A stretch of DNA of 64,000 bases from Alphaproteobacteria bacterium (GTDB taxonomy: Bacteria > Pseudomonadota > Alphaproteobacteria > UBA828): the NCBI GenBank assembly GCA_965220745.1, contig CBDCQT010000003.1, positions 160,001-224,000 on the forward strand, read 5' to 3'. Below, one piece after another: positions 16,770 through 55,653 of this stretch (position 1 is the stretch's first letter; each line of letters opens with the position of its first letter). Under the pieces are notes generated by a model, which worked only from the letters and a program-made list of their open reading frames with translations, searched no databases and was not told where the DNA came from. A program made the position numbers and the translations under genes.

Positions 16770-17768
16770 CTAGAAGTTGAGCATCGTCCCCAGAAGGATC
16801 TGAGTGAAGTCGTTCGCGCCACTCTCGCCCGCGCCAATCTGCATCCCGACATCGATTCCCGGTCCGAGATTGTAGTTGGCATTGAAGGCCACGATGTTGC
16901 TGTCGTTGGACTCGTTGTCGCCGTACTGAACGCCCAGCATCATGGGGCCGTCGGTCCAGGACACACCAATGTCGGACTTCGAGGTCGTGACACCACCGAT
17001 TTCCTGATCGTACACGGCGCCGCCTAGCGCGATCTGGTCGATGCTGATCGAGGCCCCGTAACGCATGCCCTCGGGATCCGCACCGCCGTCTTCGTTCGTG
17101 TAGCCCTCGTAGCTGACATTGGCGCTGAAGCTGCCGCCCATGACGTCGACCGAATAGCTAAGGGCGGCGGAGACCCCCTCCGAGTTCTGCCCCGGGTCGG
17201 CAGTACCCGTTCCGCCATAGGAGGCTGTCGTATCCTCGGGCGCGTAGCTCGCGGCAAGGGAAATGCCGTTAAAGCTTGGCGAGAAGTAGAGGACCTTGAT
17301 CGCATCCTCATTCATGATGGCGTTCGTCGTCCACATGCCGCCGATGCCGCCGAACCAAGGCGACTTGATGCCGCCGATAGGCACGGTCCCGCCTGGCGCC
17401 CAGACGACCGTCTGCTGCGCGGCGCCTTCGATTGCGCCGACGTGCAGGGAGCCGAAACCGCCGCTAAAGGTGATTTCCTGCTCGTCGCTGTGCTCGTAGT
17501 CGTTGGCGGCGAAGCGGACCCTGACGCCAACGGTGATGCCGTTGTCGAGGGTAGACGAGCCCGCGATCTGCATCTCCATGTTCTGCTGGATGACGTGGCC
17601 GCGATCATCCATGGCACCGTCCATGTCTCGGGCGACGAGAGCGGTGGTGTAGTAGCCGCCCACGCCTACGCTGATCGGCTCGGCCATCATCTCATCGGCA
17701 GACGCGACATTGCTGGCCAGCAGGCCAACAGCCGCGAGTGCCGTAGTTCCCAACAATACCTTCTTCAT
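16770..17768 (-). CDS. Gram-negative (alphaproteobacterial) porin, allele A
   Basis: MKKVLLGTTAL signal peptide, TLDNG.T.G, GGFGS, YFSPSFNG, NYNLGPG; C-terminal F. Confidence 0.9.
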   Translation of the reverse strand: MKKVLLGTTALAAVGLLASNVASADEMMAEPISVGVGGYYTTALVARDMDGAMDDRGHVIQQNMEMQIAGSSTLDNGITVGVRVRFAANDYEHSDEQEITFSGGFGSLHVGAIEGAAQQTVVWAPGGTVPIGGIKSPWFGGIGGMWTTNAIMNEDAIKVLYFSPSFNGISLAASYAPEDTTASYGGTGTADPGQNSEGVSAALSYSVDVMGGSFSANVSYEGYTNEDGGADPEGMRYGASISIDQIALGGAVYDQEIGGVTTSKSDIGVSWTDGPMMLGVQYGDNESNDSNIVAFNANYNLGPGIDVGMQIGAGESGANDFTQILLGTMLNF

Positions 17769-18175
17769 GCTTCGCGAGCGCAATTTTGGAGGTGATTCTG
17801 TACTCCGCTGTTATGATGGGGTAATTATGAGGTCCTGACGCGCTGGCGCTGAGCGCCCGAGAATTTCCGTAAGCGCTCAGGAAGCGGATTGATTACAACG
17901 TAAGCGTAGTCCTGCGTATTCCTGTCGGTAAGCGTTCCGTTCGCCCGTGGAGATGTTGATCCACCCGCCGTTTCGCTTCCGCCAGCCCGATGATCGCAGG
18001 GGCGATTTTAGCGGCTGAGCGCGCGTTGCCAATCCCTTCTGAGCGGCCGGAGCCAGACGTCCTTGCGGGGCTTTGGGGCTGTGGAGACCGTGCCGTGTCG
18101 GCACAGTCCTCCGCGCCGAATCGAGCTTGTACAAGTCGCTGGTAACATGATTCGACATGCGCTATCGTCGAGCGC

Positions 18176-20575
18176 ATGGCGGTTCTCGACGATGATTTCC
18201 GCGCAGACGGGACGCTGAACGAGGGCGGTGACGGGCTCTGGTCGCCCCCCAGGCCGGCGCCATCGGGTGCGCCGCACGATTTGCCATCCCTGTACGAGCA
18301 GGAACGGGCGCGGGCCGACGCGGCCGAGGCACGCTGCGAAGAACTGCGCCAAGCGGAGCTTTCCGCCCGTACTGACGCTGGTTCGTGGAAGTCGCGCTTC
18401 AAGTCCTGCCGACGCCGGCTGAGCGAGGCCGAGGAGGAGACGAAGGAACTGCGCCGCGCGGCGAAGGACGTGCCGTCGTTGCAGGCCCAAGTGGCGCGCC
18501 TGACGACGCTGCTTTCCGAAGCCGGCATCGAGTCGAGCGAGACCGGGAAGGTCGAGGTGCTGGGCAAGGAAGTCGCCCGGCTTCGCAGGGCCTTGGCAGC
18601 GCAGCCGGGGAAGGCTGCGGCCGGGGAGGCTCGGCGGGCTCGCACGGCGCTGGAACAGGCGCAGCAGCACAAGGACACCATCAGGACGCAGCGCAAGGAG
18701 ATCACCCGGCTGAACCGGGAAGTGGCCCGGCGCGACAAGGAGCTGGTCCGGCTCAATGAGCGCCTCGGCCAGCAGAAGGAACGGACGGAGGACATCAGGG
18801 AGACCGCCAAGAATCTGTCACAGGACTCTCTCCGGCTCTACAGGGAGGTCGGGTTCCTGCGCGACGCCGAGGCCCGATCCCGGTCGCTGTCCGAGGAGAA
18901 CTTCTGGCTGCGCCATGCGCTTGACGTGTCCAGGCACGGGCAGAAGAAGTTGACGGCCCGGATCGCCAAGCTCCGCGCGGCCGGAGCGACGCTGACGAAG
19001 TTGTCGTTCGACGAGGCGGCTCACCTGCGCAACGTTCTGCGACGGTCGCGACGTCAGAAGACCATGATCGCCCGGCTGCGCAAGGAGAACGCCCGGCTGC
19101 GAAGGACCGCGCAGAGGGCGCGGAACCGGGTCGAGGCGCTGGAAGCCGACATCGCGCGGCTGCGCTCGACCGGAGCGGTGCTGTCGAGAAGGCTCTACGG
19201 ACGCAAGAGCGAGCAGCAGAAGAAGCCGGGCACGGGACGCAAGCGCGGCCAGCAGCGCGGCGCGCCCGGCCATGGCCGTACCCAGCGGCCCGGACTCGAC
19301 GAACGGCTCGAAGAGCTCGAAGTGCCGGAGCAGGCGCGGGTCTGCGGGCACTGCGGCCAACCCTATGCGCCGAACGGCGCGGAGGTGTCCGCCCTGATCG
19401 AGTTCGAGGTCATCGTGTACAAGCGCGTGATCAGCCGTGAGCGATTGCGCCGGACCTGCGCGTGTGCGTCCTCGCCCGTGGAAGTGACCGCGCCCCCGGC
19501 GCCGCGGCTGTTCCCCACGACATCCTACGGAATCACCTTCTGGGCGCGCTTCCTCTTCGAGCACTGCGCCTGCTTCCGGCCCCTGCGCCGCGTCGCCGCG
19601 TGGTTCTCCAGCCAGGGACTGGCGGTCTCGCCGGGGACGCTGGCCAACAGCCGCAAGCGCTTCGCGGCGCTGTTCGAGAGCCTGTACGAGGCGATCCTCG
19701 CGCATCAGAACACCGCGGCGCTGCGCCATGCCGACGAGACCTCATGGCGCGTGCAGGAACTTCGTGGCGACGACTGCTCGAGCCGCGCCTGGCTGTGGAC
19801 TTCGGTCAGCAGCGACGCGGTCTGCTTCCATATCGACCCGAGCCGCAGCGCCGAGGCGGCGCTCAAGCTGTTCGCCGAAGCCCTGCCCGGCACGATCATC
19901 GTCTGCGACCGCTATAGCGCGTACAAGCGCCTTGTTCGCCTTCTCGGGGACATGGCGATTCTGGCCTACTGTTGGGCTCATCAACGCCGCGATTTTGTCG
20001 AGGCCGCCGCCGGCCAGCCTCGGCTGGAGCAATGGTGCCAGGGATGGGTCGGGCGGATCGCGGAGATCTACCGGCTGAACGGGGAGCGGCTCGAACATTA
20101 CGACCCCGGCAGCAAACGCCAGACGGCGGCGTTCAGGAAGGCGACGCGCAAGCTGAAGAAGGCGCTCGACCGGCTGTTCGCGCAGGCCGAAGCGGAACTG
20201 GCCGCCTTGCCGGACCACGCGCGCGAGGCCAGGGCGCTGCGCTCCCTGCTCAACCATCGCGAGGGGCTGTGCGTCTTCGTCGACAACCCCCTGGTCCCCA
20301 TGGACAACAATTTTGCCGAGAGAATCCTGCGCGCGCCCGCGATAGGGCGAGGGTTGTCGCACGGCTCCGACAGCGAGGACGGCGCCCGGTTCACCGCGAT
20401 CATGTACTCGGTCGTCGCCACGCTCTCGATGAACGGCATCGACGTCCTGCGCTGGCTTCAGGCGTGGCTCGAAGCGTGCGCGAAGAACGGCGGCCAACCG
20501 CCCGATGACCTGTCGGCCTGGCTGCCATGGTCGATGAGCGAGAAGCGCAGGCGCAAGTTCACGGCGCCGGGATGA
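18176..20575 (+). CDS. tnpC: IS66 transposase TnpC with long N-terminal coiled coil
   Basis: LYGRKSE, CGHCG zinc finger, HADET, CDRYSAY, CWAH.RR, DNNFAER. Confidence 0.92.
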   Translation: MAVLDDDFRADGTLNEGGDGLWSPPRPAPSGAPHDLPSLYEQERARADAAEARCEELRQAELSARTDAGSWKSRFKSCRRRLSEAEEETKELRRAAKDVPSLQAQVARLTTLLSEAGIESSETGKVEVLGKEVARLRRALAAQPGKAAAGEARRARTALEQAQQHKDTIRTQRKEITRLNREVARRDKELVRLNERLGQQKERTEDIRETAKNLSQDSLRLYREVGFLRDAEARSRSLSEENFWLRHALDVSRHGQKKLTARIAKLRAAGATLTKLSFDEAAHLRNVLRRSRRQKTMIARLRKENARLRRTAQRARNRVEALEADIARLRSTGAVLSRRLYGRKSEQQKKPGTGRKRGQQRGAPGHGRTQRPGLDERLEELEVPEQARVCGHCGQPYAPNGAEVSALIEFEVIVYKRVISRERLRRTCACASSPVEVTAPPAPRLFPTTSYGITFWARFLFEHCACFRPLRRVAAWFSSQGLAVSPGTLANSRKRFAALFESLYEAILAHQNTAALRHADETSWRVQELRGDDCSSRAWLWTSVSSDAVCFHIDPSRSAEAALKLFAEALPGTIIVCDRYSAYKRLVRLLGDMAILAYCWAHQRRDFVEAAAGQPRLEQWCQGWVGRIAEIYRLNGERLEHYDPGSKRQTAAFRKATRKLKKALDRLFAQAEAELAALPDHAREARALRSLLNHREGLCVFVDNPLVPMDNNFAERILRAPAIGRGLSHGSDSEDGARFTAIMYSVVATLSMNGIDVLRWLQAWLEACAKNGGQPPDDLSAWLPWSMSEKRRRKFTAPG

Positions 20576-21453
20576 CCGGCGCGGTCGAGTGCCGCTACTA
20601 CGGCCGCGACTTCACCACTGAGGAAATGGCGTTGCTGCGCGCCCTCGTCGCGTCCGACCCGCAGCCGACCCGCGCCGCCCTGTCGAGAGAGTTCTGCCGG
20701 CGCATCGGCTGGCTCAAGCCCGACGGCGGGATCAAGGACATGATGGCCCGTGTCACCATGCTCGCCATGCACCGCGACGGCGTGATCGCCCTGCCGCCGC
20801 CGAGGAGTCGGAAGCACCGGCCCAGGCCGATCGTGTTCGGACCCGACACCGAGCCGCCGCTGTTCCCTCCACCGACGACCCTCGACGAGGTCCGCCCCCT
20901 CGACTTCCGCATCGTCGTGAGCGGCAGCCGGGAAGGCAGGCTGTGGAACGAGTTCGTCGCCCGCTACCACTACCTCGGATACAAGACCCTGGTCGGCGCC
21001 CAGATGCGCTACGCCGTCCATGACCGCAACGGCTGGCCGCTCGCCATGCTCGGCTTCTCCACCGCCGCCTGGAAGCTCGCCCCGCGCGACCGCTTCATCG
21101 GATGGACGCCCGAGATGCGCGAGAAAAACCTGCCGCTCGTGGTCGACAACCCGCGCTTCCTGATATCGCCGTGGATCGAGATCCCCAACCTCGGCTCGCA
21201 CATCCTCGCCATCGTGCGCCGCCGCCTGCCCACCGACTGGTCCGAGCGCTACAACGTCACGCCCGTGCTGATCGAGACCTTCGTCGAAACCCCGCGCTAC
21301 ACCGGCGCCGTCTACCGGGCCTCGGGCTGGACCCATGTCGGGACCACCCAGGGGCGCGGACGCTACGACCGGGACAGGTTCTACGACAAGCCCCGCAAGG
21401 ACGTCTGGCTCCGGCCGCTCAGAAGGGATTGGCAACGCGCGCTCAGCCGCTAA
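20572..21453 (+). CDS. DUF4338 (Druantia DruA-like) protein
   Basis: YHYLGY, AWKLAPRDRFIGW, NPRFLI.PW..PNL.S, ETFVE..YTGAVYRASGW. Confidence 0.85.
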   Translation: MTGAVECRYYGRDFTTEEMALLRALVASDPQPTRAALSREFCRRIGWLKPDGGIKDMMARVTMLAMHRDGVIALPPPRSRKHRPRPIVFGPDTEPPLFPPPTTLDEVRPLDFRIVVSGSREGRLWNEFVARYHYLGYKTLVGAQMRYAVHDRNGWPLAMLGFSTAAWKLAPRDRFIGWTPEMREKNLPLVVDNPRFLISPWIEIPNLGSHILAIVRRRLPTDWSERYNVTPVLIETFVETPRYTGAVYRASGWTHVGTTQGRGRYDRDRFYDKPRKDVWLRPLRRDWQRALSR

Positions 21454-22258
21454 AATCGCCCCTGCGATCATCGGGCTGGCGGAAGCGAAGCGGCGGGTGG
21501 ATCAACATCTCCACGGGCAAACGGAACGCTTACTCCTGTCGCTCAAACCCTACATGTCGACGGCGGGATCGCCCCTCTCGGGGTCGAGTCGCACGCTCTC
21601 GACGGCGGCGACTCGGGCCGGTCCGGGACGAGGCGGGAGAGCGGGATCGGGTCGGTGCCGGCGGGCCTGATTGACGTGCGTGGCATGGCGGAGAGGGGGT
21701 GTCGTGGCATTTTGGCCACAGTGCCCATGGAAAACGACCGACCGTTAGAATTCGGTCATAAATTCGGTTGCGCGAGGGGGGTCGGTTGCCTCATTCTCCG
21801 GCTCCAGTGGGTTGGGACCGGTCCGAGCACGGGCGGTATGAGACCCAGAGGCTTTGGACCAATGAAAACAGAGGAGACAGAAGCATGAAGAAGGAAGCGC
21901 GCTGTATGGGCAAGCGCTTCGTTCATGCGACATTCCTACGCTTGACTACGATTGGCTACGACAAGTAGCTGATTCTATACACTGATCGTTCATCCCTCCC
22001 CGTAGCTTCCGTATCGACTTCGCGACTCCTGTACGCAGGCGTACGCAGGGGTTTGACACCACTTGCTTGCGTGGCGCTTACGGGATCGTGTACCCTCTCC
22101 CGGCGTGGTCGAGGCGTTCGGCCACGCGGCGACGGCGGGATCGAGGTGCCGTGCGTATGTTGGCGCGGCCCAGATCATATGGGGTGCAACAGCCTCCCTG
22201 ACCATCGCCATTTCATGATCGAACGCCCTCTCGCGGTGGTCAACGGGGTGGTGATTTT

Positions 22259-23449
22259 ATGTCACAGTACGGTGAGCGCACAATCTCAAAACGGACCGTC
22301 GATGCCCTTTCCGTCGAGGATCGGGACGCCATCTTCTGGGACCGGGACCTGTCCGGCTTCGGGGTGCGCGTCTACCCCTCCGGCCGCAAGGTCTACGTGG
22401 TGCAGAGCCGGGGTCCGGGGGGCTCCAGGCGGGTCACGCTGGGCCGGCACGGGAAGATCACCGCAGAGCAGGCGCGCAAGCGCGCCGCCGGGATCATCGA
22501 CAGGATCAAGACCGGGCAGGAGCCGCTGCCGGTTGAGCCCAAGAAGGAGAAGGGGCCGACCGTAGCCGACCTTGCCGACCGCTTCATGCGCGCGCATGTG
22601 GCGGTGAACTGCAAGCCTGCGACGGCGGTGCGCTATGGCGGGCTGCTCAGGAACTGCATCCTGCCCGTCCTGGGCTCCATGCCCATCGGCTCGGTCGAGC
22701 GCACGCACGTGGCGGACCTGCACTACGCGCTGCGTGACCGGCCGAGCTCGGCGAACAGGTCGGTCGACATTCTGAAGAAGATGTATTCCCTGGCCGAGGT
22801 GTGGGGCCTTCACCCGCAGGGGCGGAACCCGTGCCGGTCCGTGCGCAAGTACAAGGAGCGCAAGCCACAGCGGTTCCTGAGCGCCGAGGAGTACCAGTGC
22901 CTGGGCCGGGTCCTGGACGAGATGGAGGCGGAGGGCACGGCCTGGCTCCCCGCGATTGCCGCGATTCGCCTGCTGATCCTGACCGGCTGCCGGCGCAACG
23001 AGATCCTGTCGCTGCGATGGGACGACGTCGACCGGTCCTCGGGCGAGTTGCGCCTGAGGGATGCGAAGACGGGCGGCAGGATGGTACCGCTGACGCCCAC
23101 GGCGGCGGCGGTGCTGGACGCGATCCCGCGCATGCCGGGCAGTCCGTGGGTGATCGCAGGGAAGCGGCCGGGGAAGCACCTGAGGAACGTCAACGAGCTC
23201 TGGTATCGCCTGCGGGTCCGGGCCGACCTGAAGGACGTGCGCCTCCATGACCTGCGTCATTCCTGGGCCAGCAGGGCGCTGGCGCTCGGCGAGAGCCTGC
23301 CGATGATCGGCAGGCAGCTGGGCCACACGCAGGTGCAGACGACGGCGCGCTACGCGCACCTGGCACAGGACACGGAGAAGGTCTCTGCGGCCAGGGTGGC
23401 GGACAGCATCGAGGCCGACATCATGGTTCCGGACGCGGAGGCGGCATGA
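22259..23449 (+). CDS. Tyrosine integrase with N-terminal arm-binding domain (#1)
   Basis: WD..L.GFGVRV..SG.K arm domain; TGCRRNE, HDLRH, LGH......RY catalytic motifs. Confidence 0.93.
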   Translation: MSQYGERTISKRTVDALSVEDRDAIFWDRDLSGFGVRVYPSGRKVYVVQSRGPGGSRRVTLGRHGKITAEQARKRAAGIIDRIKTGQEPLPVEPKKEKGPTVADLADRFMRAHVAVNCKPATAVRYGGLLRNCILPVLGSMPIGSVERTHVADLHYALRDRPSSANRSVDILKKMYSLAEVWGLHPQGRNPCRSVRKYKERKPQRFLSAEEYQCLGRVLDEMEAEGTAWLPAIAAIRLLILTGCRRNEILSLRWDDVDRSSGELRLRDAKTGGRMVPLTPTAAAVLDAIPRMPGSPWVIAGKRPGKHLRNVNELWYRLRVRADLKDVRLHDLRHSWASRALALGESLPMIGRQLGHTQVQTTARYAHLAQDTEKVSAARVADSIEADIMVPDAEAA

Positions 23450-23488: not shown

Positions 23489-24706
23489 ATGGCTAAGCTG
23501 CACTACAGGTCGATCTCGAAGCGCATGGTGGAGGCGCTGGAGGTGGACAGGGACACGATCTTCTGGGACCGGGAGCTTTCGGGCTTCGGGGTGCGCGCCT
23601 ATGCGTCTGGCAAGAAGGTGTACATCGTGCAGGCCCGCGCGAAGGGGAAGTCGCGGCGGGTCACGGTGGGCCGGCACGGGGTGCTGACGGCCGAGCAGGC
23701 GCGCCAGCGGGCGGCGCAGATGATCACGCGCATCAAGGCGGGGGAGGAGGTGAGCCCCAAGAGTCCCGAAGCGCCCAGGCCGGAGGGTCCGACGGTTGCA
23801 GAGCTGGCGGAGCGCTACCTGACGGAGCATGTGGCTGTCCGGTGCAAGCCGAGGACCGTGGAACTGTGCCGCCTGATGCTGAAGAACCACGTCCTTCCCG
23901 CGCTGGGCGACGTTCCCATCGAGGCCGTTGAGCGCAAGCAGGTGGCCGATCTTCACTTCCGCCTGCGCGACCGGCCGGCCACGGCGAACCACGTGGTTGC
24001 GGTTCTGTCGCGCATGTTCAATCGGGCGGAGGCGTGGGAGCTGGTGCCGGAGGGGACCAATCCGTGCCGCGCGTTTCCGAAGTACAAGACCCGCAAGCAC
24101 GAGCGGTTTCTGACCGAGGAGGAGTTCCGGCGCCTTGGCCGCGTGCTGGCCGAGGCCGCCGACGAGGGCGGCGCGTCGAAGTACGCGGTGGCTGCGCTGC
24201 GCCTGCTGATGCTGACGGGGTGCCGTCGCAGCGAGATTCTGGGCCTGCGATGGGCCGACGTGGACCTGGAGGCGAAGGTGCTGCACCTCGCCGATTCGAA
24301 GACGGGTCCCAGGGCGGTGCCGCTGTCGCCTGCGGCGGCAAGGCTTCTGTCCGATCTGCCGCGCGTCACGGACAATCCCTGGGTGATTGTGGGCAAGAAG
24401 CGCGGCACGCACCTGCGCAACCTCAACCAGTCCTGGGACGTCATCCGCCGCCGCGCCGGTCTGGAGGACGTGCGGCTTCATGACCTGCGTCACAGCTGGG
24501 CCAGCAGGGCGCTTGCGCTGGGCGAGAGCCTGCCGATGATCGGCAGGCTGCTCGGTCACACGCAGGTCGAGACCACCGCGCGGTATGCGCACCTTGCGCG
24601 GGATTCCGTCAAGGAGTCGGCGGCCAAGGTCGCGGCCAGCATCGGGGAGGACCTCTACAGGCACCGGGAGGCGGCTGGTGGTCATCTTCACCGGGCAGGC
24701 TCCTGA
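23489..24706 (+). CDS. Tyrosine integrase with N-terminal arm-binding domain (#2)
   Basis: Paralog of #1; TGCRRSE, HDLRHS, LGHTQVETTARY. Confidence 0.93.
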   Translation: MAKLHYRSISKRMVEALEVDRDTIFWDRELSGFGVRAYASGKKVYIVQARAKGKSRRVTVGRHGVLTAEQARQRAAQMITRIKAGEEVSPKSPEAPRPEGPTVAELAERYLTEHVAVRCKPRTVELCRLMLKNHVLPALGDVPIEAVERKQVADLHFRLRDRPATANHVVAVLSRMFNRAEAWELVPEGTNPCRAFPKYKTRKHERFLTEEEFRRLGRVLAEAADEGGASKYAVAALRLLMLTGCRRSEILGLRWADVDLEAKVLHLADSKTGPRAVPLSPAAARLLSDLPRVTDNPWVIVGKKRGTHLRNLNQSWDVIRRRAGLEDVRLHDLRHSWASRALALGESLPMIGRLLGHTQVETTARYAHLARDSVKESAAKVAASIGEDLYRHREAAGGHLHRAGS

Positions 24707-42983: not shown

Positions 42984-43640
42984 TCAGCCGCCCATTGCCG
43001 GTATCTCGGTCTGGCTCAGCGCCTCAGGCGCGCCGTCTGTCAGTTCGAACACGAAGACCTCCTTGGGCTGGCCGTGGTGGCGCCAGCGCGCCGGCCCACC
43101 GGGCTCACGGGCAAAGCCGCGCGTCAGCCCCAGCGAGCGCCAGTTGGCGGCGCGGTAGCAGGTGCCGGCGAAGCGCGAGATGTCCACAAACGTCTCCGCC
43201 AGAAGTGCCGGGTATCCGTGCGCCGCATGCATGTCCTGCGACAGCCACCGCAGGCTCAGCCGCAGCACTCGCGAGGCCAGGTTGGGCACCCGCTCAGGCG
43301 TCAGGATGACGAAGCGTGAGTTGTTGGCGATCAGATGCAGGCGCTGGAACTGCTGCTCCGCCGACCACCCGATCCAGCGATCCCGCGCGCCCAGCTTGAA
43401 CGCGCCGGGCTGCCAGCCGATCAGTGCGAGCCAGGTCTCGCCATGAACCGCGACATAGCGCAGTCCCTTGCTGATGACGCCGTGGAACCGCAGATAGTGG
43501 TGCTCCTCCACCAACGGTTCCCAGCGCCGGTGCTCCTGTGCGCCCCAGATCGGGCGCACTGTGACCGCGCGCAGATCAACGGACGAAGATCCGGGATCGG
43601 CAGCGTCGCCATGAACGGCACACTGCCACATCGAGAACGG
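42984..43640 (-). CDS. Second DUF4338 (DruA-like) protein, probably partial
   Basis: HHYL, AFKLGARDRWIGW, NNSRFVIL, PNLAS, AETFVD..F.GTCYRAANW. Confidence 0.75.
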   Translation of the reverse strand, partial: PFSMWQCAVHGDAADPGSSSVDLRAVTVRPIWGAQEHRRWEPLVEEHHYLRFHGVISKGLRYVAVHGETWLALIGWQPGAFKLGARDRWIGWSAEQQFQRLHLIANNSRFVILTPERVPNLASRVLRLSLRWLSQDMHAAHGYPALLAETFVDISRFAGTCYRAANWRSLGLTRGFAREPGGPARWRHHGQPKEVFVFELTDGAPEALSQTEIPAMGG

Positions 43641-43781
43641 AATGGCCGACCCCAACTTCAGCTCAACCCGCTCAACGAACGGACAATATATTCGTCCTGA
43701 GTGCTGTCGGAGAGTGCTTGACGCCACCGCGTCAACCTGACACATTCATTCTCATAAATAGCGGGATGACAAGGACAATCC

Positions 43782-46457: not shown

Positions 46458-48914
46458 TTGGAGAGCAAATTGGCTCGCCAGAACTCCGATAGCGACGAGG
46501 CCGCGCGCATTCGCGACCGCCTCGCTCGGCTCGATGCCGAACGCGATGCCCTGAAGGCACGGCTTGCCGAGCTCGAAGCCCAAGATCAAGGCGCGCCGAA
46601 CGACAGCTCGAATTGTGAGCAGGTAACCGAGCGCTCGCCTGCGCGTGAGAAGGTCGCGCTGTTCCGATCGCTCTTCCGCGGCCGCGACGAGGTCTATCCC
46701 AAGCGCTGGGAGAACACCCGGACCCGAAAGTCGGGATACGCGCCCGCCTGCAGCAACGAGTGGAAACCGCAGGTATGCGGCAAGCCCAGGATCAAGTGCG
46801 GCTCATGCACCAACCAGGCCTTCCTTCCTGTCACCGACGAGGCGATGGTCGACCACCTGCGCGGCCGCCACACGCTCGGTGTCTATCCCATGATGGCGGA
46901 CAGCACGTGCCACTTCCTGGCCGCCGACTTCGACAAGGAGACATGGCGGAAAGATGCCGAAGCTTTTCTCGCCGTGTGCCGCTCGAAGGGCGTTCCGGCG
47001 GCCCTGGAGCGCTCGCGCTCGGGCAATGGTGGTCATGTCTGGATTTTCTTCGCCGAGGCCGTGCCCGCGATACTCGCCCGCCGCCTCGGCGCCCATCTTC
47101 TCACCGAAGCCATGGAGAACAACCCCGACATCGGCTTCAAGTCCTACGACCGGCTCTTTCCGAGCCAGGACACTCTGGCGGATGGTGGGTTTGGCAACCT
47201 CATCGCGCTACCCCTGCAGGGCGGCCCGCGCGAGAGCGGCAACAGCCTGTTTCTCGACGACGAGTTCGAGCCTTGTGCCGACCAGTGGGCCTTTCTGGCC
47301 ACGGTTGGCCGCCTGAGCCTGGCGGAGGCCACGGCCATCGTCGACGAAGCCAGCAGGCAAGGCCGAGTCGTCGGCTTGCGCCTTCCGGTCGAAGAGGAAG
47401 ACGAGAAGCCCTGGACGGCGCCGCCGTCGCGGCGGCGGTCTCCGCCGGCAATCTCCGGCACGCTCCCCGAGCGGATCGACGCGGTTCTGGGTGACCAGCT
47501 CTACGTGCCGCGCGAGGGCCTGCCGCCGGGTCTGGTCAACCGGCTCGTCCGCCTCGCAGCATTCCAGAACCCGGAATTCTATCGTGCACAGGCGATGAAG
47601 CGCTCCACCTTCGGCATCTCCCGCATCGTCGCCAGCGCCGAACTCCTGTCCCACCACATCGCCCTGCCGCGCGGCTGCCGCGCGGCGATGGAGCAGTTGC
47701 TCGACGAACTCGACATCGCCTGTCATGTGCGCGACGAACGCAACGTCGGCCGGCCTCTCGATATCGCCTTTCTCGGCGAGTTGATCCCGGAGCAGCAGGC
47801 GGCGGCCGAGGCCCTGCTGGCACACGAGACCGGCGTGCTGGCGGCAGCGACGGGGTTCGGCAAGACGGTGGTCGCCGCCTCCGTGATTGCCGCGCGCAAG
47901 GTGAACACGCTCATTCTGGTTCACCGCAACCAGCTGATGGATCAGTGGGTCGCGCGGCTGGGGGCGTTCCTGGATCTTCCGAAAGGCGCGATAGGACGTA
48001 TCGGCGGAGGCAATCGAAAGCCGGGCGGCATCGCCGATGTGGGCACGTTGCAGAGCCTTGAGCGCGACAACGTGGTGGACGACGTCGTGGCCGACTACGG
48101 ACATCTGGTGGTCGACGAGTGCCACCATCTCTCGGCGACCAAGTTCGAGATGGTAGCGCGGCGTGCCAAGGCCCGTTACGTCCTCGGGCTGTCGGCGACG
48201 GTCACGCGCCGGGACGGTCATCATCCCATCGTCTTCATGCAGTGCGGCCCGGTGCGGTACCGGGCGAGCGCCAAGGCGGAGGCGCGCCGCCACCCGTTCA
48301 GGCATCGGGCGATCCTGCGTCCGACTTCGTTCAGGTTGCCCGGCAACGACGACGAAGATCGTCCGCCGATCCAGAACATTTACGCCGCGCTGGCCGACGA
48401 TGAAGCTCGCAACGCGCTGATTTTCGACGATGTGCTGACGGCGCTGGAAGCGGGCCGCTCACCGATCCTTCTGACCGAGCGCAAGGACCACGCCGACCGC
48501 TTTGCGGAGAGGCTCGGCCGTTTCGCCCGCAACGTGATCCTTCTGCGCGGAGGCATGGGGGCGAAGCAGCGCCGTGAGGTCATGCAGCGTCTCGAAGATG
48601 TACCCGATCACGAGGAGCGTGTTCTCGTCGCGACTGGCCGCTATATCGGTGAGGGGTTCGACGACGCCCGCCTCGATACGCTGTTCCTGACCATGCCGAT
48701 ATCGTGGAGGGGGACACTCGCTCAGTATGTCGGTCGCCTGCACCGCAATCATCCGGAGAAGCGCGAGGTGCTGGTCTACGACTACCTCGACGACGCCGTG
48801 CCGGCGCTTCGGCGCATGGCAGCAAAGCGCGTTCGCGGATACGAGAACCTCGGCTACACGGTCGAGACGCCCGATGCGCTGAGCATCAAGCGAGACTCTT
48901 CGGGCGATGCATAG
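46458..48914 (+). CDS. AEP primase-like domain fused to a ResIII-type DExH helicase (TOTE-system-like)
   Basis: FLAADFD, ERSRSGNGGHVW, GFGNLIALPL; ATGFGKT, DECHH, SAT, QYVGRLHR. Confidence 0.85.
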   Translation: MESKLARQNSDSDEAARIRDRLARLDAERDALKARLAELEAQDQGAPNDSSNCEQVTERSPAREKVALFRSLFRGRDEVYPKRWENTRTRKSGYAPACSNEWKPQVCGKPRIKCGSCTNQAFLPVTDEAMVDHLRGRHTLGVYPMMADSTCHFLAADFDKETWRKDAEAFLAVCRSKGVPAALERSRSGNGGHVWIFFAEAVPAILARRLGAHLLTEAMENNPDIGFKSYDRLFPSQDTLADGGFGNLIALPLQGGPRESGNSLFLDDEFEPCADQWAFLATVGRLSLAEATAIVDEASRQGRVVGLRLPVEEEDEKPWTAPPSRRRSPPAISGTLPERIDAVLGDQLYVPREGLPPGLVNRLVRLAAFQNPEFYRAQAMKRSTFGISRIVASAELLSHHIALPRGCRAAMEQLLDELDIACHVRDERNVGRPLDIAFLGELIPEQQAAAEALLAHETGVLAAATGFGKTVVAASVIAARKVNTLILVHRNQLMDQWVARLGAFLDLPKGAIGRIGGGNRKPGGIADVGTLQSLERDNVVDDVVADYGHLVVDECHHLSATKFEMVARRAKARYVLGLSATVTRRDGHHPIVFMQCGPVRYRASAKAEARRHPFRHRAILRPTSFRLPGNDDEDRPPIQNIYAALADDEARNALIFDDVLTALEAGRSPILLTERKDHADRFAERLGRFARNVILLRGGMGAKQRREVMQRLEDVPDHEERVLVATGRYIGEGFDDARLDTLFLTMPISWRGTLAQYVGRLHRNHPEKREVLVYDYLDDAVPALRRMAAKRVRGYENLGYTVETPDALSIKRDSSGDA

Positions 48915-49661: not shown

Positions 49662-50719
49662 TAGAGCATTTTTCGATCTTAGAGAATCTTTAGAATTTTC
49701 AATCGCTTGGATTTGTGATTCAAGATGCAGGCTGGTGAAGGAGGCCAGCCTGCATGACACGACCTCTTTCGAATGATCTGCGTCGCCGGGTGGTGACGGC
49801 GGTGGTAGACGGCGGCATGACCCGCCGGGGCGCGGCAAGGCGCTTCGGGATTGCGCCGTCGACGGCGATCAAGTGGGTCGATGCCTGGCGCCGCACGGGG
49901 AGCTATCGCCCCAGAGCGCAAGGCGGCGACAGGCGCTCGCGGCGGATCGAGGCCCATGCTGAGGTGGTGCTTGCGCTGGTCGACGAGACCCCAGACATGA
50001 CGCTGGCGGAGATCGCCACCCATCTGGAAGACGAGCACGGTCTGCGGGTCTCCCAGAGTACCGTGTGGCGCTTCTTCCACCGCCGCGGCATCACCTTCAA
50101 AAAAACGGCGCACGCCAGCGAGCAGCAGCGCCCTGACGTGCTCAGGCGCAGGCGCGCCTGGGTCGACACCCAACCCGATCTCGACCCTGAGAAGCTCGTC
50201 TTCGTCGATGAAACAGGCGCTTCCACCAAGATGGCGCGACGATGCGGCCGGGCTCCTCGCGGACATCGCTGCCGCGCGCCTGTACCCCATGGGCACTGGA
50301 AGACCACAACCTTCGTCGGCGCCTTGAGGCTGAGCGGAATGACCGCACCCATGGTGCTCGACGGTGCCATGCACGGGGCCGCTTTCTTCGCCTACGTCGA
50401 ACAGGTGCTGGTGCCCGCGCTCGAGCCCGGCGACATCGTGGTGATGGACAACCTTGCCTGCCACCGCAGCGCCGCCGTGCGCGACGCCATCCAAAGCGCC
50501 GGGGCCGAGTTGCGCTTCCTGCCGCCATACAGTCCCGACTTCAACCCGATCGAAATGGCCTTCTCCAAGCTCAAGGCCTCCCTCAAACGACGCGCCGCCC
50601 GCTCCGTCAACGAACTCTGGGAGGCCATCGGCGAGGCCACAGACACCTTCACACCCGCTGAGTGCCAAAACTACTTCGCTGCTGCGGGATATGACTACGT
50701 GTGATCGGATAGCGCTCTA
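49662..50719 (+). mobile_element. IS630-family insertion sequence
   Basis: Imperfect IRs TAGAGCATTTTTCGATC / GATCGGATAGCGCTCTA; TA ends within CTAG. Confidence 0.9.
49754..50704 (+). CDS. IS630 transposase (single frame)
   Basis: FVDET, VVMDNL..H, LPPYSPDFNPIE DDE motifs. Confidence 0.95.
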   Translation: MTRPLSNDLRRRVVTAVVDGGMTRRGAARRFGIAPSTAIKWVDAWRRTGSYRPRAQGGDRRSRRIEAHAEVVLALVDETPDMTLAEIATHLEDEHGLRVSQSTVWRFFHRRGITFKKTAHASEQQRPDVLRRRRAWVDTQPDLDPEKLVFVDETGASTKMARRCGRAPRGHRCRAPVPHGHWKTTTFVGALRLSGMTAPMVLDGAMHGAAFFAYVEQVLVPALEPGDIVVMDNLACHRSAAVRDAIQSAGAELRFLPPYSPDFNPIEMAFSKLKASLKRRAARSVNELWEAIGEATDTFTPAECQNYFAAAGYDYV

Positions 50720-50720
50720 G

Positions 50721-52152
50721 TACTACAGTTTCGTTTTACTGCTCTGTATGGCTCTCTGGGCCGAACGGCTGCGGAGAGGTGGATCGATGAGCGTGGCGGA
50801 TTGGTCGGGCTCGCTTCTGGAATGGGAGCGCGAGCTGGGGTTGTGGAAGCTGCGTCTGGGCCCGGTATTCGGGCGTCGTGAGGTGCGCGAGACGGGGAGC
50901 GCGTTTTTGGACGGCCTGCTGTCGGGGATCGCGCGCAAGACGGGCTGGATGATGGCGGAACAGGCGGGGCTGTCCCGGCCGTGGCGGATGCAGGCGCTTC
51001 TGGGCCGCAGCCGCTGGGATGCCGAGGCGCTGCGGGACGAGGTCCGAGCCTATGCGCTCGAGGCGCTGGGCTGCCCGGACGGCGTGCTGGTGGTCGATGA
51101 GACGGGCTTCGTGAAGAAGGGCCGGCATTCGGTCGGTGTTGCCCGCCAGTATTCGGGGACGGCGGGTCGTGTCGAGAACAGCCAGGTCGGTGTCTTTCTT
51201 GCCTACGCGGGCCATCTTGGGCAGGCGCTGATCGACCGCCGGCTTTATCTGCCGCGCGCGTGGGCCGAGGACGGCGCACGTCGGGCCAAGACGCAGGTGC
51301 CCGACGAGATCGTCTTTGCGACCAAGCCGGCGCTCGCCCGCGCGATGATTGCTGCGGCGCTCGATGCGGACCTGCCCTGCGCCTTCGTTCTCGCCGACGC
51401 GGTCTATGGCTCAGATACCCGGCTGCGGCGCATGCTGGAAGAGCGAGGACAGAGCTATGTGCTGGCGGTGCGCAGCAACCACACTCTGCGCTTTGTCACC
51501 CCGTCCGGGCTGATCGAGACCGATCCCGCGACCATGGCCGATGATCTGGACGACGGGGCCTGGGCGGCCCATGCCGCCGGCGAGGGCAGCAAGGGCCCAA
51601 GGCTCTACGACTGGGCTCGCATCGCCCTGGGCCGGCCCTGCGACGAAGGGCCGGAACGATGGTTGCTCATCCGCCGTTCCCGCAACGATCCGAACAAGCG
51701 GGCCTACTCTCTCGTCTTCTGCCCCCAAGACACCACGCTCGCCGAACTCGCCGGTGTCGCAGGCCTGCGATGGACCATCGAGGAGTGCTTCCAGAGAGCC
51801 AAGGACGACCTCGGCCTCGACCATTGCGAGGCCCGCTCCTGGCACGGTTGGCATCGCCACATCAGTCTCGTCATGGCCGCGGCCGCCTTCCTCGCCAAAC
51901 TCGCTGCCGAGCTGCGAAGCGCCGCATCCGGCAAAGAGAACGAAACGAGTCCCAACCCGCCAATCGCCGCCTGATGCTCCTCGCCGCCCTCGTGCCTTCG
52001 GTCCCCGAAATCCAAACCCTTCTCGCTCGCTTGATATTCAAACCGTCGCAAAGAGCTTCCGACATCATCCAGTGGTCTCTATGGCGACGGCAACACCAAG
52101 CCTCAGCGGCTGTCTCTCACTACAAGAAACGAACATAAACGCAACTGTAGTA
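50721..52152 (+). mobile_element. IS701-family insertion sequence (copy 1)
   Basis: IR TACTACAGTT..CGTTT; flanked by CTAG at 50717-50720 and 52153-52156. Confidence 0.9.
50787..51974 (+). CDS. IS701 transposase
   Basis: VDETGF.KKG.HSVGVARQY.G..G..ENSQ, ADAVYG, RWTIEECF. Confidence 0.93.
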   Translation: MSVADWSGSLLEWERELGLWKLRLGPVFGRREVRETGSAFLDGLLSGIARKTGWMMAEQAGLSRPWRMQALLGRSRWDAEALRDEVRAYALEALGCPDGVLVVDETGFVKKGRHSVGVARQYSGTAGRVENSQVGVFLAYAGHLGQALIDRRLYLPRAWAEDGARRAKTQVPDEIVFATKPALARAMIAAALDADLPCAFVLADAVYGSDTRLRRMLEERGQSYVLAVRSNHTLRFVTPSGLIETDPATMADDLDDGAWAAHAAGEGSKGPRLYDWARIALGRPCDEGPERWLLIRRSRNDPNKRAYSLVFCPQDTTLAELAGVAGLRWTIEECFQRAKDDLGLDHCEARSWHGWHRHISLVMAAAAFLAKLAAELRSAASGKENETSPNPPIAA

Positions 52153-52175: not shown

Positions 52176-53051
52176 TTACTTACTGCGCAGCGCAGCATCG
52201 CGCTCGTTCGTACCTTTGTGGCCGGAGGGCAGGTAGCCGAAGCGCTCCATTTGGGCGCGGTGACGCTCCACCACGCGGCGGACCTGCGCGTCGTCCAGCA
52301 CCTCCCGCCAGCCGCCCTCCTTGCCGGCACGGAAGAAGCGCTCCTGCGACGGGGTGCGCTCGATAAAGCCGGTGCGGTCCTCCTGCGCGCGCAGTGAGCG
52401 GAAGGACGAGTACCGCATCGCCCGCTCCAGGCGCTCGCGCGGCGGCTTGAGGCCGAGGAAGGCCGAAATGGCGCGAAAAGTCGGGCCGGGCCGGCGGCTC
52501 ATGTCTTCGTAGCGCACGACGTGGAGCTGCGGATGCGAGCTGGCGGTCCAGCTCTCGACATGGGTGGACCAGTCGCTGTGGTGCTCGGGCACTTGGTCCG
52601 CCGACGCGGGAGAATGGAATCCCCTTGTCTCCATGAGCGTGATGACGTCGTCCGTCGGCTGGCCCAGGTGGTGGGCGTATGAGACGACCACGTCGAGCGG
52701 GTTGCGCACGACGTAGATCGCCCCTGCCGTGAGCGACTGGGTAATCATAGGCACGCCGTCGACTTCGACGAGGGCGTTGTGGGTCTTGACCATGACGGTA
52801 TCGGGCGCGCTCTCGGCGATGAGTGCGTGCACCCTGGGCCTGAGGCGCGCAAGATCCTCCCCGCCCAGCGCCGCCGGCGATCGGGAATCGAACCGCTCGT
52901 ACCAGTGCGCTTGGCTGTCGCCCGCTGTCAACTCGGACATTCGGTTGATGTCAAAGGGCGCGCGCGAATTCCGCAGCAGGTTATGCAGAAAGGCGCGTAG
53001 CCACGTGTTGCCCGACTTGGGGTAGGAGGCGAGCCACAGGATACCGCTCAT
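52176..53051 (-). CDS. PAPS-dependent sulfotransferase (copy B1)
   Basis: Nearly identical protein to 15693-16559. Confidence 0.92.
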   Translation of the reverse strand: MSGILWLASYPKSGNTWLRAFLHNLLRNSRAPFDINRMSELTAGDSQAHWYERFDSRSPAALGGEDLARLRPRVHALIAESAPDTVMVKTHNALVEVDGVPMITQSLTAGAIYVVRNPLDVVVSYAHHLGQPTDDVITLMETRGFHSPASADQVPEHHSDWSTHVESWTASSHPQLHVVRYEDMSRRPGPTFRAISAFLGLKPPRERLERAMRYSSFRSLRAQEDRTGFIERTPSQERFFRAGKEGGWREVLDDAQVRRVVERHRAQMERFGYLPSGHKGTNERDAALRSK

Positions 53052-53096
53052 ATGCAAATTGCCAGTGGCCACCCCTCGGAAACAAGCTTAAGTAGA

Positions 53097-53119: not shown

Positions 53120-53147
53120 CAAAGCCATAGACGACGATGTTCCACGC

Positions 53148-54140
53148 CTAGAAGTTGAGCATCGTCCCCAGAAGGATCTGAGTGAAGTCGTCCATGCCCT
53201 TCTCGCCCGCGCCGATCTGCAGCCCGAGATCGACTCCCGCTCCGAGATTGTAGTTGGCATTGAAGGTTACGATGCTGCTGTTCTCGGACTCGCTATCACC
53301 ATACTGAACGCCCAGCATCATGGGGCCGTCGGTCCAGGACACGCCGACATCGGAATGCGAGTTCGATACTCCGCCGATTTCCTGATCGTACACGGCACCG
53401 CCGAGCGCGATCTGGTCGATGCTGATCGAGGCCCCGTAGCGCAAGCCCGAGGGATCTTCACCGCCGCCCTCGTTCGTGTAGCCCTCGTAGCCGACATTGG
53501 TGCTGAAGCTACCGCCCATGACGTCGACCGAGTAGCTAAGGGCGACAGATACCCCCTCCGAGTTCTGCCCCGCTTCGTCATTGGTCCTTCCAGCATAGGA
53601 GTCTGTCGAATTCTCAGGCGCGTAGCTCGCCGCAAGGGAAAGGCCGTTGAAGTTCGGCGAGAAGTAGACAACCTTGAGCGCATCCTCGTTCATGATGTCG
53701 TTCGTCGTCCACATGCCGTCAATTCCTTGGAACCACGGCGACTTGATACCACCGATCGGCACGGTCCCTCCCGGCGCCCAGATAACCGTCTGCTGCGCGG
53801 CGCCTTCGATTGCGCCGACATGAAAGGAGCCGAAGCCGCCCTTGAAATAGACTTCCTGCTCATCGCTGTGTTCGTAATCGTTCGCGGTGAAGCGGACGCG
53901 CACACCAGAGGTAATGCCGTTGTCCAGCGTGGTCTCTGCTCTGAGCTGCATCTCCATGTTCTGGTTGATGCCGTGGCCACGATCATTGACACCGTCCTGG
54001 TCGTAGCCGATGGCGGCGATCGTGTAGTAGCCGCCCACGCCGACTTCCATCGGCACCATCATGTCCTGAGCCTGCGCCGCACCAGCCGCGAAAGCACCAG
54101 CGGCTACGAGCGCCGTAGTTCCCAAAAGGAGTCGCTTCAT
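53148..54140 (-). CDS. Porin allele B1 (has SD, probably the expressed copy)
   Basis: MKRLLLGTTAL; paralog of allele A; GAGGAG SD upstream. Confidence 0.9.
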   Translation of the reverse strand: MKRLLLGTTALVAAGAFAAGAAQAQDMMVPMEVGVGGYYTIAAIGYDQDGVNDRGHGINQNMEMQLRAETTLDNGITSGVRVRFTANDYEHSDEQEVYFKGGFGSFHVGAIEGAAQQTVIWAPGGTVPIGGIKSPWFQGIDGMWTTNDIMNEDALKVVYFSPNFNGLSLAASYAPENSTDSYAGRTNDEAGQNSEGVSVALSYSVDVMGGSFSTNVGYEGYTNEGGGEDPSGLRYGASISIDQIALGGAVYDQEIGGVSNSHSDVGVSWTDGPMMLGVQYGDSESENSSIVTFNANYNLGAGVDLGLQIGAGEKGMDDFTQILLGTMLNF

Positions 54141-54642
54141 GCTTCTGTCTCCTCTGTTTTCATTGGTCCAAAGCCTCTGGGTCTCATACCGCCCGTGCTC
54201 GGACCGGTCCCAACCCACTGGAGCCGGAGAATGAGGCAACCGACCCCCCTCGCGCAACCGAATTTATGACCGAATTCTAACGGTCGGTCGTTTTCCATGA
54301 GCACTGTGGCCAAAATGCCACGACACCCCCTCTCCGCCATGCCACGCACGTCAATCAGGCCCGCCGGCACCGACCCGATCCCGCTCTCCCGCCTCGTCCC
54401 GGACCGGCCCGAGTCGCCGCCGTCGAGAGCGTGCGACTCGACCCCGAGAGGGGCGATCCCGCCGTCGACATGTAGGGTTTGAGCGACAGGAATACGCAGG
54501 ACTACGCTTACGTTGTAATCAATCCGCTTCCTGAGCGCTTACGGAAATTCTCGGGCGCTCAGCGCCAGCGCGTCAGGACCTCATAATTACCCCATCATAA
54601 CAGCGGAGTACAGAATCACCTCCAAAATTGCGCTCGCGAAGC
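54141..54642. promoter_or_regulatory. Porin control block copy B (intact, 502 bp)
   Basis: Lies between divergent porins; bounded by inverted GAAGCATGAAG; SD at the left end only. Confidence 0.85.
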
Positions 54643-55653
54643 ATGAAGCGACTCCTTTTGGGAACGACGGCGCTCGTAGCCGCTGGTGCTTTCGCGGCCG
54701 GTGCGGCGCAGGCTCAGGACATGATGGTGCCGATGGAAGTCGGCGTGGGTGGCTACTACACCACCGCTCTTGTCGCCAAAGACGTGGACGGTGCCGCGGA
54801 TGATCGCGGCCACGTCATCCGGCAGAACATGGAGATGCAGTTCAGGGCAGAGGGGACGCTGGACAACGCCATTACAGCTGGCGTCAGGGTTCGCTTCACC
54901 GCCAACGACTACGAACACAGCGACGAGCAGGAAGTCTATTTCAAAGGAGGTTTCGGCTCCTTGCACATCGGCGCAATCGAGGGCGCCGCGCAGCAGACGG
55001 TCATATGGGCACCAGGCTCAAGTGTGCCTATCGGCGGCATCAAGTCGCCCTGGTTCGGCGGCATCGGCGGCATGTGGAATACGGGCCCGGGAACTGGTGT
55101 TGCCATCATGAACGAGGATGCGATCAAGGTCCTCTACTTCTCGCCGAACTTCAACGGCCTCTCCCTTGCCGCGAGCTACGCGCCTGAGGATACGACAGAC
55201 TCCTATGGCGGAACGAGCACTGCCGACCCGGGGCAGAACTCGGAACAGGTCTCTGCCGCCCTCAGCTACACGGTCGACGTCATGGGCGGCAGCTTCAGCG
55301 CCAATGTCGGCTACGAGGGCTACACGAACGAGAGCGGTGGTGAGGATCCCGAGGGCTTGCGTTACGGGGCCTCGATCAGCATCGACCAGATCGCGCTAGG
55401 CGGTGCCGTGTACGACAAAGATGTTGGCGGCGTCGCGACGTCGCATTCCGATATCGGCGTGTCCTGGACCGACGGTCCCCTGATGCTGGGCGTTCAGTAC
55501 GGCGACAACGAGGGTACCGACAGCAACATCGTGGCCTTCAATGCCAACTACAATCTCGGACCGGGAATCGATGTCGGGATGCAGATCGGCTCGGGCGAGA
55601 GTGGCGCGGACGACTTCACTCAGTTCCTGCTCGGGACCATGTTCAACTTCTAG
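54643..55653 (+). CDS. Porin allele B2 (no evident SD)
   Basis: First ~120 nt almost identical to B1; the rest is closer to allele A. Confidence 0.9.
   Translation: MKRLLLGTTALVAAGAFAAGAAQAQDMMVPMEVGVGGYYTTALVAKDVDGAADDRGHVIRQNMEMQFRAEGTLDNAITAGVRVRFTANDYEHSDEQEVYFKGGFGSLHIGAIEGAAQQTVIWAPGSSVPIGGIKSPWFGGIGGMWNTGPGTGVAIMNEDAIKVLYFSPNFNGLSLAASYAPEDTTDSYGGTSTADPGQNSEQVSAALSYTVDVMGGSFSANVGYEGYTNESGGEDPEGLRYGASISIDQIALGGAVYDKDVGGVATSHSDIGVSWTDGPLMLGVQYGDNEGTDSNIVAFNANYNLGPGIDVGMQIGSGESGADDFTQFLLGTMFNF

Follow-up and report, generated by a model that had tools for sequence, protein, structure and literature searches.

Probable nested integration of mobilizable islands at a porin start codon in an alphaproteobacterium

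The window analysed here comprises 64,000 nucleotides of an alphaproteobacterial genome of the UBA828 lineage (assembly GCA_965220745.1, contig CBDCQT010000003.1, positions 160,001 to 224,000 of the forward strand), and harbours three porin genes, a pair of tandem tyrosine integrase genes and a duplicated block of 502 bp, arranged around the two ends of a putative mobilizable island. The porins, designated porA, porB1 and porB2, are all encoded by intact Porin_4 open reading frames (ORFs), each of which is followed by a sulfotransferase gene. A repeat search combined with direct reading of the sequence demonstrated that the block is present twice and inverted, block B being uninterrupted and block A, its reverse complement, being split in two by an insertion sequence (IS) of the IS66 family. 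Once this insertion and one copy of its target duplication were removed, the two blocks differed at a single one of the 502 positions (54300, A versus G), in agreement with the preliminary description of this locus, in which one mismatch had been found by eye. No third copy of the block exists in the genome. The two ends of the block are hereafter referred to as P1 and P2, the native promoter, 5' untranslated region (UTR) and Shine-Dalgarno (SD) region of the porin as P3, and the segment beginning at 21885, which precedes the integrase genes, as the stub.

All four block ends carry the same 11-bp core, GAAGCATGAAG, which contains the start codon. With up to one mismatch allowed, this core was found exactly four times in the window (expectation 0.70; 0 of 100 shuffles reached four), and the whole genome contains eight exact copies, four of them at this locus, such that the earlier proposal of one core with the porin ATG at every block end is upheld. 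The P2 end reads GAGGAG, then ACAGAAGC, then ATG, with GAGGAG seven bases 5' of the start codon, and it faces porB1 and the stub; the P1 end, devoid of a purine-rich SD sequence, faces porA and porB2, again as previously described. Consequently, porB1 is the only porin at the locus that is joined to P2 with an SD sequence. The identity between the flanks of locus A and those of locus B falls from 100% to 12-67% right past ATGAAG. The claim that identity stops at the core, with the flanking porins being much more diverged, thus holds for locus A relative to locus B, but not for porB1 and porB2, which are 96-97% identical across their first 120 nt.

The genome of the window (G000) was compared with those of the same genus (G codes; 21 genomes), and the block was found in eight of the 21. 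The closest relative at this locus, G008, has neither block nor island; it is 91.5% identical to the window over positions 12195-17771, and the homology stops at the core, three bases past the porA ATG (window 17771). Beyond this break G008 carries a 236-bp P3 region with a strong SD sequence, behind which lie phoB, phoU, pstB, pstA and pstC. The PhoB protein scored 345.8 bits against TIGR02154 (cut-off 296.2), and PhoU, PstB, PstA and PstC were also identified. A second uninterrupted site, in the order phoB, P3 and porA, was found in G015 (contig C68). From these two uninterrupted sites it follows that porA is the porin gene directly behind the pst-phoB operon, and that P3|porA is the empty attachment (att) site.

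Orthologues of integrase 1, with amino acid identities of 89-97%, were identified in five other genomes, and in all six island-bearing genomes the integrase-proximal arm begins at the core ATG. P2 precedes the arm in G000, G015 and G001; in G005 and G020 it is preceded by P3, which there immediately follows phoB, and in G011 (contig C2) by the P3-like end of a diverged 473-bp block. Across the six genomes the arm has accumulated insertions and deletions, and in G020 it starts with ATA; it is therefore conserved as DNA and not as an ORF, which identifies the 'dead stub' of the preliminary description as an att arm and not a gene remnant. The island of G005 is collinear with window positions 21885-54145, and runs from phoB and P3|stub through the integrases, the genes for a single-stranded DNA-binding protein (SSB), a primase, a relaxase, HTH_17, YhgA and TOTE proteins and a sulfotransferase, to a porB1-like porin beside a P1 fragment. 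A comparison with G013 had raised the possibility that the 32-kb segment between the P2 cores is inverted relative to related genomes, and this was rejected on account of the collinear G005 island. In G020, a 117-bp fragment of the 3' end of phoB (80% identity; locus L028, 11632-11748) was also observed, in convergent orientation just after the island-side porin, and was probably left behind when the locus was rearranged at an earlier time.

An alignment of five full blocks revealed that both ends are conserved and the middle is variable, with a break near block position 345. P2 could be aligned with native P3 regions, with which it has in common a palindrome-like box (GTGGCATTT..CACA), a GAATTC(T/G)GTCAT box with the look of a direct repeat, the SD sequence and a 5' UTR of approximately 115 nt; judged by the consensus, the boxes may resemble a PhoB/OmpR-type site. 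TACG repeats, spaced 10 bp apart, are located in P1 (at -150, -140, -134 and -103) and in the stub arm (at +52, +62, +72, +147, +157 and +194), at densities of 26 and 16 per kb, respectively; the window as a whole has 2.0 per kb, and P2 has none. All three window matches to the 10-mer GCGCTTACGG lie in P1 or the stub arm (0.18 expected), as do four of the five matches to TACGCAGG (1.13 expected), and the motifs of the stub arm are conserved across the six genomes. No extended similarity was evident between the block and the stub arm (best local score 28, shuffle maximum 35), and the short motifs alone stand. A scan for sigma-70 consensus promoters retrieved no site in the block, and an Rfam search (E ≤ 1) of window positions 53000-56000 retrieved nothing meaningful.

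The locus is probably best explained by two nested site-specific integrations, carried out by a single family of integrative mobilizable elements (IMEs) whose att core is the porin translation start, and we assign this reading a probability of roughly 0.75. In our reading of the sequence, P1 and the stub arm would constitute the two arms of one attP, and P2 would belong, as its promoter, to a copy of the target locus that the island has captured, consisting of promoter, porin and sulfotransferase. The ancestral order would be that still intact in G008, namely pstC-pstA-pstB-phoU-phoB, P3, ATGAAGAAGG... porA, the sulfotransferase gene, an outer membrane protein (OMP) beta-barrel gene and MTHFR. 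The far end of the island would carry the captured target copy (sulfotransferase, porB1 and P2) back to back with the P1 arm of approximately 155 bp, and the block would be bounded by inverted cores because its ends coincide with a porin start and with the att core of the island itself. An older island would initially have entered P3|porA, producing P1|porA and leaving its cargo porin porB2 behind P2; island 1 would subsequently have entered P2|porB2, producing P2|stub at 21885 and P1|porB2 at 54643, with strand exchange presumably occurring within about N-ATGAAG of the core. As an outcome, porB1 alone would keep P2 and its SD sequence, porA and porB2 would be fused to P1, and the P2 of the older island would now read into the integrase genes. 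The order of these events, the native junction and any effect on expression are what we infer from the arrangement of the locus.

A second copy of the island is located in inverted orientation to the right of porB2 and its sulfotransferase gene, as the nested integration predicts. It runs to the contig end at window-equivalent position 78652, and contains the remnant of a TOTE gene, two YhgA copies, a 7.8-kb segment with 91% identity to positions 43000-35244 and a NikA-like piece. The anatomy of the locus, the empty site, the arm boundary at a single base, the motifs common to both arms and this second island copy were all directly observed. They support the assignment of junctions put forward in the preliminary description, in which P2|porB1 was attB, P2|stub attL, and P1|porA and P1|porB2 both attR; this assignment is the most economical for G000.

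Island 1 (21885-54642), as part of the nested reading and with the same likelihood, would be a mobilizable island of 32.8 kb integrated at the start codon of porB2. The two tandem integrases, which are P4-like, both retain the catalytic R, HxxR and Y motifs (...TGCRR..., LHDLRHS and ARYAH in translation); catalytic motifs, an arm-binding domain and a relative's empty site that breaks at the same base were thus all found, as is characteristic of tyrosine-integrase elements. Aside from the genes in Table 1, Pfam searches identified a TraB/GumN protein, a Phd/PIN pair, a NikA-like protein, a DruA-like gene and a YhgA-like gene in the island, with no further Druantia components among the ORFs scanned. 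No type IV secretion family was matched in Pfam among the ORFs scanned between 21.9 and 52 kb, though two island ORFs of 518 and 483 amino acids, which had no family match, may include a divergent coupling protein. Given a TrwC relaxase and a NikA-like gene, and no matched secretion family, the island is therefore classed as an IME. The sole tRNA called by ARAGORN in the window, a tRNA-Ala(cgc) at 20178-20263 on the minus strand, lies inside the IS66 transposase ORF and is probably a false positive, leaving the island without a tRNA association.

Table 1. Features of the porin locus and of the putative islands, in window coordinates.
Feature	Position	Strand	Remarks
Sulfotransferase A	15693..16559	-	Downstream of porA, chromosomal; Pfam Sulfotransfer_1 2.5e-29; syntenic with island-free G008
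Porin A (porA)	16770..17768	-	Pfam Porin_4 5.1e-35; chromosomal, Pho-operon-linked; joined to P1 end
Core J1 (P1|porA)	17763..17773	-	attR-type junction; G008 homology ends at 17771
P1 part of block A	17769..17927	-	Candidate P arm of attP; 100% identical to 54484-54642; bears TACG repeats and GCGCTTACGG
IS66-family element	17928..21533	+	3606 bp; DDE_Tnp_IS66 3.3e-55; splits block A at P1/P2 boundary
P1/P2-boundary IS66 sites	17920-17927 / 21534-21541; L026 ~9290-9302; L027 ~10043; L025 ~9790		First pair in the window
DruA-like (PF14236) passenger of IS66 element	20527..21453	+	DruA 2.3e-38
P2 part of block A	21542..21884	+	Porin-type promoter, 5' UTR and SD; here reads into stub arm and integrases
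Core J2 (P2|stub)	21880..21890	+	attL-type junction; island arm begins at this ATG in 6 genomes
Stub, integrase-proximal att arm (P' arm)	21885..22258	+	Kept as DNA, not ORF, in 6 genomes
Tyrosine integrase 1	22259..23449	+	Pfam Phage_integrase, Arm-DNA-bind_3, SAM-like N domain
Tyrosine integrase 2	23489..24706	+	~60% identical to integrase 1; Phage_integrase, Arm-DNA-bind_3, SAM-like domains
SSB and DUF7146-Toprim primase genes	29937..31658	+	Pfam
TrwC-type relaxase-helicase	36885..40010	-	Pfam TrwC 2.1e-82, AAA_30
HTH_17 (AlpA/excisionase-like) gene	41718..41984	-	Pfam HTH_17 2.2e-07; candidate directionality factor
DruA-like (PF14236) gene inside island	42984..43745	-	Second DruA-like gene is the IS66 passenger
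TOTE-type AEP primase-helicase	46458..48914	+	Pfam AEP-TOTE 1.3e-97; defence cargo
Two IS transposase genes in island	49754..51974	+	IS630-type DDE_3, then DDE_5
Sulfotransferase B1	52176..53072	-	Island cargo
Porin B1 (porB1)	53148..54140	-	Island-borne; same position as island porin of collinear G005 island
Core J3 (P2|porB1)	54135..54145	-	Unoccupied attB-like site
Block B	54141..54642	+	P2 part ~54141-54483 plus P1 part ~54484-54642
Core J4 (P1|porB2)	54638..54648	+	attR-type junction; putative right end of 32.8-kb island
Porin B2 (porB2)	54643..55653	+	Putative cargo porin of older island copy; joined to P1
Sulfotransferase B2	55722..56627	+	
DDE_5 transposase gene	57105..58304	+	IS within older island copy
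TOTE gene remnant	58535..58862	-	90% identical to 47107-46780; start of inverted older island copy

Several observations weigh against the nested-integration reading. The integrase end of the older island is absent from this contig, and a P1|stub junction was found in none of the 21 genus genomes. Neither an excised form, an empty secondary site nor an inverted block was seen in the contigs of four sequencing runs, from which rare variants drop out. The islands at the native site of G020 and G005 have P2 beside the chromosomal porin and P1 beside the island porin, a geometry that corresponds to simple integration with attP = P2|stub, so that an additional flip must be assumed in those lineages. 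Blocks A and B are 99.8% identical, in comparison with only 88-91% for the two island bodies; a shared att/promoter module, gene conversion and cassette exchange at two cores are candidate causes, whilst a general homogenization of blocks within genomes was rejected, as the two blocks of G001 are only 73-83% alike. The pst-phoB cluster (locus L061, 5588-12507) has no nucleotide-level counterpart in the G000 assembly, in which the sole match to pstCAB-phoU-phoB is a 71% phoB paralogue on contig C13; the cluster has been either lost, replaced or not assembled. Finally, the dN/dS of porA, now joined to P1, is low, at 0.09 relative to G008 (empty site) and 0.12 relative to G001 (occupied site). 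Such strong purifying selection argues against long-term silencing of porA, which is not decaying and is therefore either still expressed or was disconnected recently.

The native geometry of the element could also be the opposite one, with P2-core-stub as attP. P2 would then replace the displaced promoter and SD sequence and keep the target porin expressed, in the manner of elements that target dusA and prfC, P1 would be the upstream region of the island porin, and G000 would have arisen via extra flips or core exchanges. We regard this alternative as rather doubtful, even though the islands at native sites have phoB and P3|stub at one end and P2 joined to the chromosomal porin at the other, with both ends residing on one contig in G020 and with the G005 island collinear to island 1. 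P2 is, moreover, a close architectural copy of P3, as a promoter-restoring end would look, and elements that restore a gene targeted at its 5' end are documented (PMC8409611). However, two extra inversions would be needed for G000 and one for G013, P2 lacks any motif common to P1 and the stub arm, the porin-integrase interval of G020 (67 kb) is mostly unlike island 1 and may hold several elements, and IS66 copies divide the block of G005 between two contigs. An attP of P2|stub fits the single-island genomes G020 and G005 better, whereas P1|stub fits G000, G013 and the arm motifs better, and an invertible block would reconcile both geometries. That no site-specific chemistry was involved at all, the blocks having multiplied through homologous recombination and the activity of IS, with the core being merely the usual start context (MK...) of exported proteins, is very improbable. 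The locus is indeed rich in IS (IS66, IS630 and two DDE_5) with long inverted repeats, and a metagenome scan with a 20-mer of the P2 end and core retrieved seven loci, all of them chance matches to unrelated gene starts, so that this sequence is nothing exotic; yet the arm boundary falls on the same base in six genomes behind P2- or P3-type partners, the empty site breaks there too, the identity of loci A and B collapses at that point, clusters of arm-type motifs flank the core, and the core base covaries within genomes. It is barely credible that the duplicated block is an artefact of assembly. An exact repeat of 343+159 bp could in principle be misjoined, and the assembly consists of 13 contigs, but the copies differ by one base and by the IS, and the same two-locus architecture is found on two contigs of G001. 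Furthermore, Logan contigs of four runs (X1-X4), derived from one sample that may be the source of the assembly and compared over positions 52000-57000, provide independent evidence of the P2|stub junction and of the two IS66 ends, and include a contig that extends from porB1 through the core into P2.

Compatible with nested integration, and held here as a tentative extension of it, is an active switch, in which the integrases and the AlpA-like factor would reversibly invert the block or blocks, or excise island 1, at a useful frequency, and thereby move P2 among porA, porB1 and porB2. Inverted 11-bp cores bound the block in eight of the eight block-bearing genomes, and the base 5' of the ATG, which varies between genomes, is uniform among the cores within each: most genomes have C, G013 has G at either end of the block, and in G005 the cores at P1, P2 and P3|stub have T. 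Such covariation is expected if this base lies in the overlap of mutually recombining sites. The block end joined to orthologous porins also differs between lineages. For the chromosomal porin on the side of the OMP beta-barrel gene, the adjoining end is P1 in three genomes (G000, G001 and G013) but P2 in two (G020 and G005); for the island porin in the collinear position, G000 has P2 and G005 has P1. Whichever junction is the native one, the block must have flipped at least once, or two exchanges at the cores with the same effect must have taken place. Inversion between 21885 and 17768 (J1 x J2, inverted cores) and excision between 21885 and 54643 (J2 x J4, direct cores) would each be ordinary attL x attR reactions, and all three porins are intact, with porA under purifying selection. 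Conversely, the species differences may reflect one or two rare events, and the divergent G001 blocks, along with the degradation of some arm motifs in G020, speak against continuous exchange everywhere. The search for alternative junctions that the preliminary description had proposed retrieved none within the sample of X1-X4 or in the 21 genus genomes, the contigs having no power for minor forms; since contigs drop minor variants, the recovery of reference junctions only says nothing on rare switching. The loose contig ends in X1-X4 were those expected from locus A (the stub and the IS66 ends), and the contigs showed no joints. A contig of X3 that links porB1-P2 to 30 letters beyond 54491 was considered as a rearrangement and rejected, given that P2 is an exact repeat and the depth was approximately 4.

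Should such switching take place, the locus could confer phase or antigenic variation of a major porin, a suggestion we offer with reserve. In a similarly speculative vein, this family of tandem-integrase islands, with an att core in the ribosome-binding-site and start-codon region of the major Pho-linked porin, may build an archive of intact porin alleles, among which reactions of the integrases and their recombination directionality factor (RDF) would move a single end bearing promoter and SD sequence. Each arrival would then disconnect the porin in use, install its own and create the next landing site, and the whole would amount to a mobile-element-driven system for varying a receptor or antigen. 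As the host porin promoter would read into the integrases after integration, these genes might also be subject to tuning by phosphate supply.

Inverted repeats of IS66 elements begin GTAAGCG, and the element in block A has such repeats (146 nt in length) along with a DDE_Tnp_IS66 transposase and an 8-bp target duplication, TCCTGTCG; it occurs as a single copy in the G000 genome. IS66-family elements were observed at the identical block site, the P1/P2 boundary, in G000, G005 and G011. These are flanked by target duplications CGACAGGA and CGACAAGG, are only about 76% alike and differ in their terminal sequences, and their shared position reflects either an old common insertion or a strongly preferred target. 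A regular-expression search retrieved no ends of the IS66 relative on contig C9. Two DDE_5 genes, 50748-51974 and 57105-58304, share 75-78% nucleotide identity in direct orientation and lie just outside the sulfotransferase gene of porB1 and that of porB2 (sulfB2-X), respectively, and the type of the second gene is present in at least five copies in the G000 genome.

The integrase family is greatly expanded in the genus, mostly as tandem pairs, with 29 matches (E ≤ 1e-40) in G000, 90 in G011, 58 in G004 and 51 in G005. Three other tandem pairs were observed in G000, on contigs C8 (~11165), C9 (~27721) and C10 (~809388) (loci L074-L076), each with a divergent gene that lies approximately 270-450 nt upstream of integrase one of the pair and is separated from it by a TACG-rich arm. 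These genes encode lipoproteins of 610-718 amino acids that start with GAAGCCATGAAGAAG and have an identical signal peptide (MKKTKLTRSLLAACSIVAL..YGC) followed by unrelated mature parts, and the module of arm and signal peptide has many copies in related genomes. It would seem from this that an association with surface-protein gene starts is general in the integrase family. A more distant tandem pair (79% nucleotide identity) is situated beside a divergent porin pair in G003 (contig C2, 2504000-2523000; L053), a genome without the 502-bp block, a hint that porins may be associated with these integrases beyond the clade in which the block occurs. A scan of public genome contigs with integrase 1 retrieved two loci only, one of which was the G015 contig, and the plasmid collection contained no match to porB1-block-porB2.

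Porins are the main entry points for nutrients, antibiotics and phages. If the nested-integration reading is true, horizontal transfer, surface variation and possibly phage-receptor exchange would be joined in one mechanism, with the element supplying a replacement porin that is governed by a copied native regulatory region and leaving the displaced alleles intact. An island that carries a copy of its own attachment target would explain both why islands accumulate one inside another and how a promoter segment comes to lie between inverted att cores. The system is also compact, comprising an 11-bp core, two integrases, one small HTH gene and three junction types, and bears on how sites are chosen by tandem integrase pairs, of which the genus has 20-90 copies per genome. 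At the level of listings and abstracts, the literature held no description of an island at a porin start codon or of an invertible porin promoter of this type.

Several known systems resemble parts of this arrangement. Invertible promoter switches include fimS with FimBE, Hin with hix, and the sap promoter of Campylobacter fetus, which inverts between opposed homologues. The present locus is like these in having a short promoter segment with inverted repeats, adjoining surface-protein genes and nearby tyrosine recombinases, and in the difference of orientation between lineages; it is unlike them in that its inverted repeats are not dedicated switch sites but att cores belonging to a mobile element, its recombinases are integrases that an island encodes and that possess arm-binding domains, and the contigs of X1-X4 show the reference orientation only. 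The tripartite integrative conjugative element (ICE) of Mesorhizobium exemplifies multipartite or nested ICEs, which are put together by several pairs of integrase and att site. There, as here, the presence of several related integrases and att sites on a replicon allows integrase reactions to invert large segments or to reassemble them, whereas at the porin locus a single att type would be reused in a nested manner because the island carries its own copy of the target. Mobile-element porins that replace a host porin are exemplified by the Lc porin of lambdoid phage PA-2 and nmpC of a defective prophage; in those cases as in this one the mobile element brings its own general porin and expression of the host porin is changed, as it may be here, but at the present locus any replacement would be a cis effect, the host porin being cut off from its promoter and SD sequence at the integration site, and the vehicle would be a mobilizable island and not a phage.

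The plan is also like that of elements that integrate in the 5' end of a gene and supply new upstream sequence, such as the dusA-specific IMEs (IMEVchUSA3) and ICE SXT in prfC (PMC8409611). In common with that type, the island is mobilizable and has a tyrosine integrase, a 5'-end target (the core holds the ATG of porA and porB2), a relaxase and a small RDF-type gene; the element end adjacent to the target is P1 without an SD sequence in G000, and P2 with an SD sequence and P3-like boxes in G020 and G005. Unlike in those elements, the crossover here would lie on the start codon itself, such that the coding sequence is left as it was from codon 3 onward; a porin gene located behind the pst-phoB operon serves as the target, and two tandem integrases are present. 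In further contrast to the dusA and prfC elements, the island would carry a full paralogous copy of its target, comprising promoter, porin and sulfotransferase, back to back with its att arm; this copy would make a new attB-like site that a second island used, giving rise to nesting, and a promoter block bounded by inverted att cores would be the result.

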